Shown here: positions 991 through 26,968 of the stretch, piece by piece | Numbering within the stretch: position 1 is the stretch's first letter | How the letters are laid out: every line of letters starts with the position of its first letter | Virus record (IMG/VR): IMGVR_UViG_2703718810_000003 | Origin: a virus | Lineage: Duplodnaviria; Heunggongvirae; Uroviricota; Caudoviricetes | DNA length: 43,509 nt | Reading direction: 5' to 3' (one strand) | Notes under the pieces: model-generated | The model's database searches: none | What the model was told of the DNA's origin: nothing | The model's input: only the letters and a program-made list of their open reading frames with translations | Made by a program: the position numbers and the translations under genes

Positions 991-1147
991 AATAAAAATT
1001 CTGAGTTTATTCACATTTCCGGCAATTGCCTGTAGCCGCAATAATGGCGCTGCGTTACTTTTTTGATGCCTGAAAAATAACTCCATAACGTTAATCTTCA
1101 TCGTTCTCTCCCGCAGCTCCGCTGATTCTGCGGGATTTTTTTATCCC
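991..1147 (+). repeat. Repeat unit 1 of a tandem ~155-bp element in the I-J intergenic region
   Basis: Unit 1 and unit 2 align over most of their length (ttattcacatttc..., gtagcc.caataatg.c.ctgcgttac, catcgttctct, ctgcgggattttttt); each ends in a plus-strand hairpin plus T-run. Confidence 0.75.
1110..1142 (+). terminator. Rho-independent terminator ending repeat unit 1
   Basis: CCCGCAG-(11 nt loop)-CTGCGGG then A plus TTTTTTT on the plus strand; minus strand has no U-run after the hairpin. Confidence 0.6.
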
Positions 1148-20700: not shown

Positions 20701-20846
20701 AGTTTCTTACCGTTATGGTTGACAATGGCGATGACTTTTCAATAAAAGAAAGGCGATATGTGTTACATATCGTTCTCCATGAGGATACTCCTCCGCCAGC
20801 GTCAGACTTATCCTCCCGTTCTCCTCTGCGCTGGCGTTTTTTTGTT

Positions 20847-22835
20847 TTATGATGAAGAGGTTGCCTGGTTAATGCTTACCATGATACTGCGGAACATGAC
20901 AGGATAAGATTTTCCCTGATTTGCGCTGATACCTGTCACTGTGATGTTATCCACCGTAAAGGCAGAAGTGACCGGACCTTCTTTCAGTGCAAAACCTGTT
21001 TTCTCTTCTCCGTCAAGTACCGGAATAACCTGGTGATTGCCGCCTCCTTTATATTTAAAGACAAGCGTGTGCCAGTTGTTATTAACCGCACCGAATGACT
21101 CAATTTTTGTATTAGGCTGTGTTTTACCGTGATACATGACATCCAGGTTACTGGCTTTTGTCTGAGTGAAAAAGGAGGCCATCATATTGCTGCTGTTGCC
21201 TTCCTGAGTCCACCCGGAAACTGGCAGGTAAACACCAAAGAGGTATTTGTCATCTGCAACCTGGGTACCATCCGGCAACCTGAATTCAAGTTTTATTTCA
21301 CCGCCATTTTCATACAGAGCACGGGCATCTTCAGCTGATACTCCTGCTGACAGCATCCACGGTCCCTGTTTGCCCTCATGCTGCTTAATCTTCAGCACCT
21401 GTCTGCTTTCATCATTAACAAACTCGGCGACACCGTCCCGGGCATTCCAGTGCTGGGCTGCCCAGTTACCACCGAGGCTGTCTTTCTCAACAGCTGAATT
21501 ATACTCAACAACCGTTCTTCTCTGAGGTGCATCCTGTGATAACGCAGCATCCTCCACAGGTGACGGGAAATTTCCGGATGTAACGTTTTCCCGTTCATCT
21601 CCTGCAACTACCGTTTCTGACCGCCCGGTGATAAACGCCGGGTATTTGCCTGCGTGGGTCAGAATTGCGGTTGCAAGACGATCTGAAATAATTCCACGCC
21701 GCGCCCATGAACCGAAATGGCTTGCCCTGTCACCTGACGTCCAGCTGACAGAACTGTCTCGCCACTTCGAACCGGAGTAGCCAATACCTTCAATATCAGG
21801 ATCTTCTGCCGGATTATTGGTCTGCACATTTACCCCGCTTCCATCAACCATGAAAGGGACAAAGTGAATATTCTGCGCTGCCTTATTTTTATATCCACCG
21901 TATACAGTTTCATAAGACGCAGCATATTTTTCTTTCCAGTAATGCGTCGTATCGCCACAAACCCACGGAACGCTCAGTGCCGAGCCCCCCACGCACTGCC
22001 CTGACATATCAGCGATGTCAGCACGGAATTTCTGTACCATGCCAGTAAAAAGAGCATTATGACTCTGGCTTCCTGAAGCCAGATCACTCTCCCCCTGCAT
22101 CCAGATTACCGCCAGCAGGATATTTCCGGGATTTTTAGCCAGCGCGACTTTCGTGCGACTTAACAGATCCTGGTACAGCGGCTTATCAGCTCCCCACAAT
22201 GCAGAATCAGGGCTTGCCCCGGAAGAGGCGTTAAATGTTCCCTCATTACCTGTAGTCACTCCCGAGCCTCCACGACAGCATGGAACCAGAAGAATGCCCG
22301 CATTCGCCGGTATAAACGGTAACAGTTTTTTGGCAATATGCAGTCCCTGACCCACACAACCATACTGACCTTTATTGAGGTCTGCCCGGGGGTGATTTTT
22401 TTCACTCATATCCATCACATCATGAAGACAATGATCTGCCGGAATAACATCGTTATAGGTGCAGGGAACGCCTCGCGGCGTAACGGTACGTCGACGGGCA
22501 AGCTGCTTAATTCTCGGATCAGGGCGATCATAAGAATCAGGTAACGGTACTCCCTCTCCAAAAGACATACCATTTGACTGACCCGCCAGCGCGACAACAT
22601 AATAATATTCAGGCTCACCGGTCTTGCTGATAGCCGTCTCCCCGTCACCCGATGGTTTAACCAGCACCGGCGTGGTGACATCACCTTCCGCCGCAATAGC
22701 CTGCATCAGGGTATAAGGCGTGATGGCGACAGGGCTGCCAAATGGCTGCCACCCCTCCTTCAGTTTTTGTGTCAGTCGTTCAGCAAGGTCTGACGGCGAT
22801 GCCGCCCTGACCACATCGTAGTGTTTAAATGCCAT
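20847..22835 (-). CDS. NanS-p-like sialate O-acetylesterase (N-terminal DUF1737-like region plus SASA/SGNH-like hydrolase)
   Basis: 662 aa beginning MAFKHYDVVRAASPSDLAERL; VVALAGQSNGMSFG esterase motif; occupies the position of the ~645-aa ORF downstream of stx in Stx phages. Confidence 0.7.
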   Translation of the reverse strand: MAFKHYDVVRAASPSDLAERLTQKLKEGWQPFGSPVAITPYTLMQAIAAEGDVTTPVLVKPSGDGETAISKTGEPEYYYVVALAGQSNGMSFGEGVPLPDSYDRPDPRIKQLARRRTVTPRGVPCTYNDVIPADHCLHDVMDMSEKNHPRADLNKGQYGCVGQGLHIAKKLLPFIPANAGILLVPCCRGGSGVTTGNEGTFNASSGASPDSALWGADKPLYQDLLSRTKVALAKNPGNILLAVIWMQGESDLASGSQSHNALFTGMVQKFRADIADMSGQCVGGSALSVPWVCGDTTHYWKEKYAASYETVYGGYKNKAAQNIHFVPFMVDGSGVNVQTNNPAEDPDIEGIGYSGSKWRDSSVSWTSGDRASHFGSWARRGIISDRLATAILTHAGKYPAFITGRSETVVAGDERENVTSGNFPSPVEDAALSQDAPQRRTVVEYNSAVEKDSLGGNWAAQHWNARDGVAEFVNDESRQVLKIKQHEGKQGPWMLSAGVSAEDARALYENGGEIKLEFRLPDGTQVADDKYLFGVYLPVSGWTQEGNSSNMMASFFTQTKASNLDVMYHGKTQPNTKIESFGAVNNNWHTLVFKYKGGGNHQVIPVLDGEEKTGFALKEGPVTSAFTVDNITVTGISANQGKSYPVMFRSIMVSINQATSSS

Positions 22836-22948
22836 GAATCCTCCCGGCCGGAATAATGTTCTGAGTCAGAGAAGGCTCGGGCTGACCTCCGGAAACACAA
22901 AAGTCACACAAAACAGCCCGCAAAAAAGAAATACGCCCTTACATACAG

Positions 22949-22978
22949 TTGCGCAATGTGATTACTGTAAGGTATTAT
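22949..22978 (+). promoter_or_regulatory. Sigma70-like promoter (TTGCGC-N18-TATTAT) of plus-strand unit 1
   Basis: -35 at 22949..22954, -10 at 22973..22978; same architecture repeated at 23881. Confidence 0.45.
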
Positions 22979-22984
22979 TAGGGC

Positions 22985-23053
22985 GCTGAATAAATTACTT
23001 CACGTTTTGTTATTTATTCCTTGCCAACCGCTCTTCCCTGGAGCGGTTTTTTT
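22985..23053 (+). ncRNA. Candidate ~70-nt small RNA (plus-strand unit 1), antisense to the nanS-p leader
   Basis: Promoter to terminator distance ~70 nt; U-rich body (auuacuucacguuuuguuauuuauuccuugcc) conserved with unit 2; terminator CCGCTC-TTCCCTG-GAGCGG plus T7. Confidence 0.4.
23028..23053 (+). terminator. Intrinsic terminator of plus-strand unit 1
   Basis: 6-bp GC stem plus 7 T. Confidence 0.6.
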
Positions 23054-23058
23054 GCATG

Positions 23059-23084
23059 TAAAAAGGCTCCTGCAATGAGGAGCC
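23059..23084 (-). terminator. Minus-strand terminator downstream of structured element 1
   Basis: GGCTCCT-loop-AGGAGCC followed by U-run on minus strand; convergent with plus-strand terminator at 23028. Confidence 0.45.
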
Positions 23085-23112
23085 TGGATGTATGCCTAAT
23101 CTCTGTATACTA

Positions 23113-23226
23113 CATGGTGCCGGGTGCCTCCCGGTGAGTTCAGTATCAGCACCTGAACCCGCACAGAAAGGATAGAGTAGAAACACCTGCGCTGATATGC
23201 CCCTCCGCTCAGGGGGATTCACCATG
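23113..23226 (-). ncRNA. Structured RNA-like element, copy 1 (strand assignment tentative)
   Basis: CATGGTG...CACCATG closing helix enclosing hairpins CCGGGTGCCTCCCGG and CCCCTCCGCNCAGGGGG; three paralogous copies in window. Confidence 0.45.
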
Positions 23227-23321
23227 CAGAACTTTTTTAACAACTCCCCGTCAGACAGGCAAGCATCAACCATCTGAACTGTGAGGGATTTAACATTTAA
23301 CAACACAGCCTTTTCCCGCAC

Positions 23322-23346
23322 AAAAAAAGCCCCTCAGGAGAGGGGC
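23322..23346 (-). terminator. Minus-strand terminator downstream of structured element 2
   Basis: GCCCCTC-AGGA-GAGGGGC followed by 7 U on minus strand. Confidence 0.55.
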
Positions 23347-23373
23347 CGATCGCTGTGTATACACCATAAGCAG

Positions 23374-23485
23374 CATAGTGCCGGGTGCCTCCCGGTAGAT
23401 TCAGCCTGACTACTGAATCTGCGTATTGTGACCATCGCTATGGAGACCATGTCAGACGCCCCTCCGCACAGGGGGATTCACTATG
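23374..23485 (-). ncRNA. Structured RNA-like element, copy 2
   Basis: Closing helix here is CATAGTG...CACTATG: both strands changed compensatorily relative to copies 1 and 3. Confidence 0.45.
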
Positions 23486-23723
23486 CTGGCTCGTTTTTAC
23501 AAGACTTCCATCAATCAGACAATAGTCCATCAACCGAATTGTGAGTCATTTAACATTTCCATGAGGTAACTGATATCCAGCTAACAATCATCTGCAATGG
23601 ACGAAGCCAGTTCCAGAACTTGCCCACACTACAGCAACAACCACTGCATTCCAAAAATGGAATTTTGGGAGATTACTTCTGCAAACAGCTACCGATAAAT
23701 ATATCCCTGATTGCCTGCGCAGT

Positions 23724-23837
23724 CTGTTCAAAACGCCCGGTATCCAGCTCAACGCCTATAGCACGACGCCCCAGCGCCATCGCTGCTTTAACTGCCGAAC
23801 CCTACCCCATGAAGAAATCTGCAACCAGGCCACCCGG
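23724..23837 (-). pseudogene. Internal fragment of a second DNA methyltransferase gene (paralogous to 25255..25368), with in-frame stop
   Basis: ~114 bp near-identical to the 3' region of the intact methylase; translation PGGLVADFFMG*GSAVKAAMALGRRAIGVELDTGRFEQ. Confidence 0.7.
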
Positions 23838-23880
23838 CAGAAGGGAGACTACAGCCCGCAATTCGAAAAAGGCCGCGCAG

Positions 23881-23910
23881 TTGCGCAGAGTGATTACTAT
23901 GGGGTATTAT
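23881..23910 (+). promoter_or_regulatory. Sigma70-like promoter (TTGCGC-N18-TATTAT) of plus-strand unit 2
   Basis: Paralogous to 22949..22978. Confidence 0.45.
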
Positions 23911-23916
23911 TCGCCA

Positions 23917-23984
23917 GCTGAAATATTACTTCACGTTTTATTGTTTATTCCTTGCCGCCCGCGTCTCCCAGCGCGGGCTTTTTT
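23917..23984 (+). ncRNA. Candidate ~70-nt small RNA (plus-strand unit 2)
   Basis: Same U-rich body as unit 1; terminator stem sequence entirely different (GCCCGCG/CGCGGGC) but structure retained. Confidence 0.4.
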
Positions 23985-23990
23985 GTCCAT

Positions 23991-24014
23991 AAGAAAGCCC
24001 CTCCAGAGAGGGGC
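23991..24014 (-). terminator. Minus-strand hairpin downstream of structured element 3
   Basis: GCCCCTC-CAGA-GAGGGGC followed by UUUCUU on minus strand. Confidence 0.4.
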
Positions 24015-24042
24015 TGAAGCCGCATTTCTGTATCACCATGAA

Positions 24043-24167
24043 CATGGTGCCGGGTGCCTCCCGGTGAGTTCAGCCCGGTGACACTAAACCCGCGTATTCT
24101 CGCTTACGATCATCAAAGAGATCATACCGTTCACCAGTCGCCCCTCCGCACAGGGGGATTCACCATG
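24043..24167 (-). ncRNA. Structured RNA-like element, copy 3
   Basis: Same conserved 5' and 3' blocks as copy 1 with a different central insert. Confidence 0.45.
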
Positions 24168-24303
24168 CGAAATTTTTTTAACAAATGCCCAGTCTGACAG
24201 GCAACTGTCAACTTACTGAATTGTGAGGAATTTAACACTTCACAGCACAATATCTTTCCAGCACCCCAAAATCATCTGGACAGGAGAAAATCTTCTCCCC
24301 CAG

Positions 24304-24732
24304 TCAGAGTTTAAAATCCAGCACGCCATTTCTAAATGCTTTATATACTCCTGAAGACGGTGGTGATGGTATATCAGCATTCTTTACTGCATTCATCGCT
24401 TCACGACATAAATCGGGATCACCGCTTTCTCTTTTAACCTGTAGCAGAAGACCATTCGGGGCCATATACATTCTCAGTGAACACTCTTTTCCTGAATACT
24501 TACCCGCATCCTTTAACTGTTCTTCTATGGCTTCCCTGACCTGAATGGCATACTGCCGGATTTCTTCACTGGCATCAGGGGTACGTTCCGATAAGCTCAA
24601 ATTTTGCGACTTTATTAATTTATCTGAGTGATGCAGCGAAGCATCATAATTATTTGTCGATACATCTTTTGTGCAGCCAGTTGTCAGACTGGCTAATATC
24701 AAAACAAGAACCGGTACAGCACGGCAATACAT
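24304..24732 (-). CDS. Lipoprotein with TolA C-terminal (domain III)-like domain
   Basis: Signal peptide plus lipobox (LILASLTTGC); C-terminal YAIQVREAIEEQLKDAGKYSGKECSLRMYMAPNGLLLQVKRESGDPDLCREAMNAVKNADIPSPPSSGVYKAF aligns with E. coli TolA C-terminus (YAGQIKSAIESKFYDASSYAGKTCTLRIKLAPDGMLLDIKPEGGDPALCQAALAAAKLAKIPKPPSQAVYEVF) as I recall it. AT-rich gene and flanks. Confidence 0.75.
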   Translation of the reverse strand: MYCRAVPVLVLILASLTTGCTKDVSTNNYDASLHHSDKLIKSQNLSLSERTPDASEEIRQYAIQVREAIEEQLKDAGKYSGKECSLRMYMAPNGLLLQVKRESGDPDLCREAMNAVKNADIPSPPSSGVYKAFRNGVLDFKL

Positions 24733-25010
24733 TTATCCATCTCCATATTAACAAGAACAATTATCTATAAAATATAGTAAATATGCGGGATCCGGGAGGA
24801 CTTGTAACTATCATCTCCGGATCAGCATGTAGTTTTTATTTTTCCGGATGATATATGCCGCAATAATACCCCTGCATACAGATGCCTGCAAATATCTACG
24901 AAGCATCCGGCGAGAATAAACAAGGAAATCTGAGACTATCTTATATGATAGCCTGTTGCTCAAAAGACAATGATTCACTCATCAGAGCTAACAACGCATG
25001 ATGCAGATAA

Positions 25011-26619: not shown

Positions 26620-26742
26620 GTCTTTTTCCCTTTTCCGGTTAACGTGACACACCAATAACTCTTGTCGAAAAAGCCAGCAAGATAAAAGGTCGCTATTCAC
26701 GACCACCAGCGCGTTTAACGTCCTGTGCCGTTTTTCGGGCAT

Positions 26743-26765
26743 AAAAAACCCCGCCAGTGGCGGGG
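26743..26765 (-). terminator. Intrinsic terminator (late-leader terminator 2)
   Basis: CCCCGCC-AGT-GGCGGGG followed by UUUUUUAU on minus strand. Confidence 0.6.
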
Positions 26766-26968
26766 ATCTTTTGATAAAAACGACAAAGGCACCATTAAGG
26801 TGCCTTTTACACAGGGCAGCAGGCTTGTCATCACCTTATTGCTACTCCTGGCTTCCAGTTCGGAAGTCTCACAAGTCCCATCAGGGTACAGCGACAGTAT
26901 CAGTCAACACTCTATGATTCTGCTGAACAGGCAGTTTCGCACTGTACATTATAACCTGTTAAGCCAAC

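Follow-up and report, generated by a model that had tools for sequence, protein, structure and literature searches.

Two short transcription units on the plus strand of the IMG/VR virus record IMGVR_UViG_2703718810_000003 (a Caudoviricetes sequence of 43,509 nucleotides, the whole of which is called the window here) are probably genes of the EcOnc08/21/42 family of prophage small RNAs (sRNAs), that is, of trans-acting, Hfq-dependent RNAs that would be expressed in the lysogen. The present analysis shows the homology of the sequences, their genomic context, the pattern of conservation and the covariation of the terminators, and Hfq binding and RNA partners are taken from the literature on homologues. 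Judging from its sequence, unit 2 (23881-23984) is essentially EcOnc08, and unit 1 (22949-23053) is a rare allele. The RNA is not a new one, as it was catalogued in 2014 and again in 2021, and the additions made here are modest, namely the seed assignment in both alleles, the relationship to the AsxR/AgvB cassette and the question of the 5' end. A preliminary description of the same DNA missed both the family identity and the membership in the "convergent sRNA pairs" of Tree 2014 (PMC4104026).

Each unit spans approximately 105 nt and consists of the hexamers TTGCGC and TATTAT at a distance of 18 nt, a U-rich body and an intrinsic terminator, all of which can be read directly from the sequence and had been correctly located in the preliminary description. 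The two copies lie 931 bp apart in the prophage, and the units with their flanks (approximately 170 nt each) align with a mean column identity of 82%. The window contains exactly two copies of a 32-nt core, ATTACTTCACGTTTTRTTRTTTATTCCTTGCC, compared with 0.00 expected from 100 shuffles. The parts of the two units are as follows.

22949-22978 (+), putative proximal promoter of unit 1: -35 TTGCGC at 22949-22954, 18-nt spacer, -10 TATTAT at 22973-22978.
22984-23053 (+), predicted short RNA of unit 1, about 69-70 nt: 5' hairpin GAAUAAAU/AUUUAUUC; covariance model R1, 75 bits.
23019-23025 (+), predicted seed CCTTGCC of unit 1: complementary to the GGCAAGG motif of the partners reported for the EPEC homologue (see below).
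23026-23053 (+), intrinsic terminator of unit 1: AACCGCTC, loop TTCCCTG, GAGCGGTT; terminator scan and covariation.
23881-23910 (+), putative proximal promoter of unit 2: TTGCGC at 23881-23886, 18-nt spacer, TATTAT at 23905-23910.
23916-23984 (+), predicted short RNA of unit 2, about 69 nt: 67 of 69 bases as in EcOnc08 of Sakai Sp4; R1, 97.8 bits.
23950-23956 (+), predicted seed CCTTGCC of unit 2: same complementarity to GGCAAGG; conservation profile.
23957-23984 (+), intrinsic terminator of unit 2: GCCCGCG(T), loop, (G)CGCGGGC at 23957-23978, followed by T6 at 23979-23984; terminator scan and covariation.

The hairpin of unit 1, AACCGCTC/GAGCGGTT, occupies 23026-23048, and its final two T begin the T7 run at 23047-23053. 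Both hairpins were called by the terminator scan, which found 12 terminator-like sites in 22000-25000 against 3.0 expected.

The family identity is carried by the comparison with published RNAs. In the prophages of Escherichia coli Sakai, convergent sRNA pairs were described in the moron site downstream of PR', including AsxR with EcOnc27 in Sp5 and, in Sp4, EcOnc08 with EcOnc05, an STnc100 homologue (PMC4104026). The EcOnc08 peak obtained there by cross-linking and analysis of cDNA with Hfq (Hfq-CRAC) lies at 1179938-1180010 on the minus strand of Sp4 and was found in 5/5 replicates (PMC4104026, Table S2); when placed on the Sp4 sequence, it begins directly after TATTAT and ends within the T-run. 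The predicted RNA of unit 2 differs from the Sp4 EcOnc08 RNA (L002 2437-2506, minus strand) at 2 of 69 positions, corresponding to 97% identity, and unit 1 is approximately 80% identical to it. The homologue in prophage PP6 of enteropathogenic E. coli (EPEC) E2348/69 is identical to Sp4 over the RNA, and the EPEC report lists it as the sRNA candidate E2348C_1409.E2348C_1408.IGR and notes its homology to EcOnc08/21/42 (PMC8550237). The Hfq-type sRNA that the preliminary description had offered as one alternative is thus backed, by analogy, by Hfq-CRAC in Sakai Sp4 and by the sequencing of ligated, interacting RNAs (RIL-seq) in EPEC, both on near-identical homologues. A further copy, EcOnc42, is the one 3' of stx1AB; in a Shiga toxin (Stx) 1 phage record, a unit was found between stx1B and a homologue of the esterase gene nanS-p, antisense to both, in agreement with the published EcOnc42 position. 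The location of the units within the window is that of the family as well: they are found in the moron region downstream of PR', run antisense to the late transcript and converge with an STnc100-type sRNA. The coordinates of AsxR and EcOnc27 in Table S2 were observed to be approximately 133 bp lower than those in NC_002695.2 (L124, Sakai Sp5), evidently because the table is based on an earlier genome version; the Sp4 coordinates agree.

Members of the EcOnc08/21/42 family resemble both units in the promoter hexamers, the seed CCUUGCC and the type of terminator, and they, too, have a convergent STnc100 partner and lie next to a nanS-p-like open reading frame (ORF) or 3' of a moron. Unit 1 has a terminator stem and an upstream flank that differ from theirs and one additional 5' hairpin, and the published size of approximately 271 nt exceeds the promoter-to-terminator distance of the units. 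The other half of the convergent pair (STnc100 (RF02076), EcOnc05, EcOnc27 and PasD) always adjoins the unit, and it is located on the opposite strand, measures about 200 nt and is unrelated in sequence and structure. No Rfam family covers the units. A match to OmrA-B (RF00079) of 21.8 bits, against a gathering score of 40 and with E = 0.19, was treated as a chance match. HnrS, PasA/PasC, Esr41 and StxS are likewise short Hfq-dependent sRNAs in the prophage late regions of enterohaemorrhagic E. coli (EHEC) and EPEC, but belong to other loci and sequences, StxS lying at PR'/tR'. Identity with PasA/PasC was rejected because the window lacks the sequence of the PasA probe and the published synteny places these RNAs beside the holin gene, on the other side of the esterase gene; HnrS was rejected because it corresponds to EcOnc10/11/12, a different family (PMC13502914).

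The unit 2 type is widespread in E. coli, being present in 987 of 5426 complete genomes (approximately 18%) in up to four copies and never annotated, and the unit 1 type (at least 95% identity) was found in 12 of the same genomes. The unit sequence was detected in 70 phage records, including Stx1-, Stx2a- and Stx2d-converting and Shigella phages, and in 128 instances among IMG/VR viral contigs, which comprise 42 distinct sequences and several cases of the same two-copy arrangement. A search of 185,579 species-representative genomes for a 27-nt core gave no match, and a looser 21-nt pattern gave only unrelated Bacteroidota matches in these genomes. This distribution across genome, phage and viral contig collections indicates that the family is accessory and prophage-borne. 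Among 126 collected homologues, 125 were true and one was a false positive (12 of the 125 have the diagnostic motif one base off), and an STnc100-like gene is convergent with the unit in all 125 true instances. The unit 2-type sequence immediately follows stx1 on its 3' side in the Stx1 phage record that was checked and also matches Stx2a-converting phage records, yet it has neither an Rfam entry nor a RefSeq annotation. Prophage annotation would benefit if it were entered as an RNA family and its 5' end were settled, and its function would become directly testable.

The terminators provide evidence at the level of structure. The preliminary description had stated that the two stems differ completely, which overstates the case, as a 4-bp CCGC/GCGG core is common to both and only three pairs differ (A-U/G-C, A-U/C-G and U-A/G-C), all of them compensatory; the loops differ in length by 1 nt. 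A covariance model, R1, was built from 17 variants and gave 97.8 bits for unit 2, 75 bits for unit 1 and 23 bits for the next match in the window. The 103 R1 matches used for the covariation analysis include 21 distinct homologues, in which 95.9% of the cells of the 7-pair terminator are paired in an alignment that was fitted to the structure. Both sides change in 3 of the 7 pairs (G-C/A-U, C-G/A-U, and G-C/U-A or A-U); the observed covariation score was reached by 0 of 500 shuffles, and slid controls showed nothing. The hairpins, which are GC-rich, are followed by a T-run and keep their pairing in homologues, are selected as structure, as any functional terminator would show, and this part of the preliminary description stands. 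Unit 1 folds with an energy of -20.7 kcal/mol (z = -6.2) and has an extra 8-bp 5' hairpin, whereas the body of unit 2 is mostly unstructured (z = -2.9). The body core and TTCCTTGC are nearly invariant in a conservation profile of 50 distinct loci. Two side observations concern these elements. The 23-bit R1 match, at 1068-1142 (+), owes its score to a terminator (CCCGCAG...CTGCGGG with a T7 run) that comes after a U-rich stretch. In three unit 1-type alleles in IMG/VR (L046 7938-8017, L056 4357-4436 and L019 8199-8276), the seed region is duplicated in tandem (TTCCTTGCTTCCTTGCC).

By analogy with the homologues, an Hfq-dependent trans-acting sRNA is the most likely function. In the lysogen, a sigma-70-type promoter belonging to each unit would drive its transcription on the strand that faces the Q-dependent late operon, and transcription would stop at the intrinsic terminator that abuts the terminator of the convergent STnc100-family sRNA gene. 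The U/A-rich body and the terminator hairpin with its U tail would bind Hfq, and the seed CCUUGCC, next to the terminator, would base-pair in trans with GGCAAGG sites in host and pathogenicity-island mRNAs. In the EPEC RIL-seq data, the homologue occupies the sRNA position (RNA2) in 9 of 10 interactions, with 767 chimeras with the 5' untranslated region (UTR) of cfa and 197 with that of dppA, and with emrA, tir, espC and pcm among the other partners; GGCAAGG is the motif common to these partners (PMC8550237). This motif is the complement of CCUUGCC, which is present in both units directly 5' of the terminator, and the predicted pairing at the cfa site, CGGCAAGGG, could extend over 8-9 nt in unit 2 and over 7 nt in unit 1. 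A search of the window for phage targets found GGCAAGGAA only as the complement of the units themselves. A regulatory outcome on the targets is likewise predicted. Since the partners reported for the homologue include genes from the enterocyte effacement locus and effector genes (tir, espC) as well as envelope and metabolic genes (cfa, dppA, emrA), a link between carriage of the prophage and the regulation of host and virulence functions is plausible.

Several observations weigh against a short RNA that acts in this way. The duplex energy between the sRNA body and the cfa 5' UTR was no better than that of shuffled sRNAs (p ~0.2-0.6) and so uninformative, only the 7-9-nt seed match being visible by eye, and a 2021 review lists the targets of the EcOnc08/21/42 family as unknown. 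A generic sigma-70 scan called neither proximal promoter. Moreover, the sole Northern blot for the family, for EcOnc08/21 in Sakai, shows a band of approximately 271 nt, EcOnc21, a further CRAC peak, is located upstream of the point where transcription is proposed to start (PMC4104026), and the size of the EPEC homologue was estimated as 182 nt (PMC8550237). The published data therefore point to longer isoforms, of approximately 180-271 nt, than the promoter-to-terminator model of about 70 nt. Because of the upstream EcOnc21 peak and the 182-nt estimate, the proximal promoter may be a minor one, or processing may give rise to the short form. The autonomous plus-strand sRNA genes of the preliminary description are retained, and a simple promoter-to-terminator length of about 70 nt conflicts with the published sizes.

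The promoter hexamers are present and essentially invariant across loci, but TTGCGC agrees with only 3 of 6 consensus -35 positions and the two hexamers together with 8 of 12, at a spacer of 18 nt. In the profile of the 50 loci, the -35 element shows no deviation at all and the -10 element deviates in one sequence, whereas the discriminator and the loop vary, as do the outer stem pairs and the spacer in its 3' half. Support for the promoter thus comes from the comparison with other loci (invariance of the hexamers and homology to the AsxR promoter) and not from a match to the consensus, and both the activity of the proximal promoter and the size of about 70 nt are predictions. The -35 element of unit 2 sits within a palindrome, GCGCAGTTGCGC. 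As a separate observation, the late strand carries a hairpin at 23873-23888 (-), CTGCGCAACTGCGCGG followed by CCTTTTTCG, which overlaps the unit 2 -35 and forms this palindrome; it might serve as an operator or weakly terminate late-strand transcription. The hairpin is also present upstream of EcOnc08 in Sp4 (L002 2534-2549, plus strand), and the same flank sequence lies upstream of AsxR in Sp5; at unit 1 the hairpin is absent.

The relationship to AsxR and AgvB is the best argument, again a comparative one, that TTGCGC-N18-TATTAT is a real promoter. The Sp5 sequence upstream of AsxR reads ...ACAGCCCGAAATACGAAAAAGGCCGCGCAGTTGCGCAG, which is the same flank and -35 as in unit 2, and is followed by an 18-nt spacer, the -10 element TAAAAT and, 6 nt on, the 5' end of AsxR as mapped by rapid amplification of cDNA ends. 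AsxR (EcOnc02), AgvB (EcOnc01) and EcOnc03 (RF02703, RF02702) share with the units the slot, the flank, the -35 TTGCGC and the 18-nt spacer, as well as a terminator abutting an STnc100-type gene and the antisense orientation to the late and stx transcript, and they are bound by Hfq. They differ by the -10 element (TAAAAT instead of TATTAT) and by the RNA body, in which the conserved GTATCTCATGC..TTGCCCGAACCCAYTCGGGC is absent from the units; moreover, they measure 51-60 nt compared with about 69 nt, and the known partners of the units' homologue are mRNAs rather than sRNAs. Although the units have the slot and promoter architecture of this group (TTGCGC-N18, -10 element, convergent STnc100), membership in it was rejected, as RF02702 and RF02703 gave no match at E <= 1 over 7 kb or at E <= 10 over 1.1 kb, and the published sequences do not align with the unit bodies. 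A scan of IMG/VR for the common flank found 121 EcOnc08-type bodies and 42 AsxR/AgvB/EcOnc03-type bodies behind it. A hybrid allele was also observed at one IMG/VR locus, with an AsxR-type spacer, a TATTAT -10, an EcOnc08-type body and an altered seed (TTTCTTACC), which suggests recombination between the two cassette types. Since both kinds of body follow the common flank and a hybrid occurs, EcOnc08-type and AsxR/AgvB-type RNAs can be considered alternative cassettes in one scaffold.

The units are embedded in the late region of a lambdoid prophage that is read on the minus strand, and a prophage of 99.9% identity is annotated in E. coli S19-651. Its minus-strand genes are those for antiterminator Q, a DNA methyltransferase, tRNA-Ile(CAT), tRNA-Arg, a 142-aa ORF, a methylase pseudogene, the SASA-family esterase NanS-p, DUF1378, DUF826, holin and lysozyme. 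Rfam, applied to the whole window, found three STnc100 copies and two tRNAs and no other family. The neighbours of immediate relevance are as follows.

23054-23255 (-), STnc100 copy convergent with unit 1: Rfam RF02076, 164 bits.
23985-24197 (-), STnc100 copy convergent with unit 2: Rfam RF02076, 169 bits.
20847-22835 (-), nanS-p, SASA-family esterase gene: ORF list and RefSeq annotation of the identical prophage.

As all late genes (Q, the tRNAs, STnc100, nanS-p, holin and lysozyme) are on the minus strand, both units are antisense to the late transcript, and unit 1, which lies between the nanS-p start (22835) and the STnc100 3' end (23054), is antisense to the region just upstream of nanS-p and opposite its leader; both points had been claimed in the preliminary description and hold. 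Both units are arranged tail-to-tail with STnc100, with a gap of a few bases between the 3' ends, which amounts to approximately 5-10 nt for unit 1 and its neighbour. The repeated module is larger than the units, extending from about 35 nt upstream of the -35 through the entire convergent STnc100 gene, and duplication of this whole STnc100-plus-sRNA module would have produced two copies with the same seed and different 5' structures and terminators. A methylase pseudogene (the C-terminal fragment of a DNA methyltransferase gene with an internal stop) at 23673-23837 (-), between STnc100 copy 2 and unit 2, marks the junction between the duplicated modules. The middle STnc100 copy, at 23320-23515 (-), scores 120.8 bits, is the most divergent of the three tandem copies and has no plus-strand partner unit.

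With respect to the longer species, a promoter yielding exactly 271 nt was sought and not found, and only one distal site was seen.

22829-22857 (+), distal promoter-like site ATGCCA-N17-AATAAT: promoter scan; overlaps the nanS-p start codon.

A long isoform, of about 190 nt and antisense to the nanS-p leader, may originate at this site. The motif ATGCCA-N17-(G/A)ATAAT is kept in five prophages, the site being conserved in Sakai Sp4 and Sp5, EPEC PP6 and an Stx1 phage, and its position is consistent with the upstream EcOnc21 peak and with the start estimated for the EPEC homologue. A block of approximately 130 nt around the nanS-p start codon, at 22780-22910, which includes this site, was observed to be almost invariant in the five prophages, and the coding sequence further in diverges.

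The position of unit 1 (22949-23053) opposite the nanS-p leader had led to the proposal of a cis-antisense regulator in the preliminary description. Such a role, in which unit 1, and especially its long isoform, would pair with the late transcript and the nanS-p leader alongside or instead of acting in trans, is possible but does not appear likely, and the same holds for its proposed effect, the control of the esterase and lysis genes by RNase III cleavage, occlusion of the ribosome binding site (RBS) or transcriptional interference. That unit 1 overlaps the late read-through transcript is given by the geometry, and only the long isoform would reach the RBS; the longer species (the Northern band of approximately 271 nt, the EcOnc21 peak and the 182-nt estimate) would be antisense to the nanS-p 5' UTR and RBS. 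A nanS-p-type start lies at most ~330 nt upstream in 93 of the 126 homologues, and the promoter-like element over the nanS-p start codon is conserved in the five prophages. However, the conservation of the start-codon block can also be explained by coding and RBS constraints, and AsxR, which has the same upstream block, was seen as a 54-nt RNA. Moreover, the remaining 33 homologues have no nanS-p-type start within ~330 nt upstream, and the upstream neighbour of unit 2 is the methylase pseudogene rather than nanS-p, although promoter, seed and terminator are kept; the RIL-seq partners are trans mRNAs. A cis role is therefore not the general function of the family and may apply to unit 1 only, for which the published sizes above 70 nt and the distal promoter-like site at the nanS-p start leave room.

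Two other explanations can be set against an Hfq-dependent sRNA that pairs with mRNAs in trans. An anti-sRNA (sponge) like AsxR and AgvB, which would act by sequestering or destabilising an sRNA of the core genome and not by direct regulation of mRNAs, is improbable, even though the units occupy exactly the AsxR/AgvB slot with respect to flank, -35, spacing and convergent STnc100 partner. The 5' UTRs of cfa and dppA are hubs for other sRNAs, and competition at these sites is conceivable. On the other hand, the unit bodies are unrelated to the conserved 3' region of approximately 42 nt in AsxR/AgvB/EcOnc03, the searches with RF02702 and RF02703 were negative even at E <= 10, and an sRNA complementary to the units was not identified; in the excerpts of the EPEC RIL-seq data that were considered, the partners are mRNA coding sequence or 5' UTR segments and one intergenic region, with no annotated sRNA among them. 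Still harder to sustain, and very improbable, is the view that there is no RNA gene, the hairpins being back-stop or bidirectional terminators that insulate STnc100 and the late operon, with a fortuitous promoter or a protein ORF across the unit. In favour of this view, the promoter has a weak match to the consensus, a hypothetical protein is annotated over the unit in some phage records (e.g., ORF b70 in NC_004913), and a 153-aa plus-strand ORF spans unit 2. However, a stable Hfq-bound RNA has been published for homologues, and it is only on the plus strand that the hairpin is followed by a T-run. The protein-coding reading was rejected because indels of 1, 4 and 8 nt in homologues, together with the variable length of the T-run, break the reading frame, unit 1 has no spanning ORF and the ORFs have no Pfam match.

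A broader and rather speculative combination may be added to the trans-acting sRNA, in which an exchangeable sRNA cassette slot and a duplicated module are joined by a dual function of unit 1, as a short trans-acting sRNA and as a long cis-acting isoform. The slot between the conserved flank (with the -35 TTGCGC) and the STnc100 terminator may hold an AsxR/AgvB-type or an EcOnc08-type body. If this is true, the long isoform from the promoter at the nanS-p start would silence the esterase and the lysis read-through in cis during lysogeny.

Besides the two units, two further elements of similar kind were observed in the late region. A promoter-terminator unit at 20720-20845 (+), between the DUF1378 gene and the nanS-p stop codon and convergent with nanS-p, combines a perfect TTGACA with an A/T-rich -10 at a spacing of 17 nt and ends in the terminator GCCAGCG...CGCTGGCG with a T7 run. 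This unit is probably a relative of the Esr41/PasA/PasC-type sRNAs, and the Esr41 match at 20750-20845 is weak (31.8 bits against a gathering score of 102). A terminator-bearing element at 26742-26803 (-), just downstream of Q, gave weak matches to isrK (20.6 bits) and R1 (14 bits) and is located at the position of the short PR'-tR' transcript of the StxS/IsrK type.

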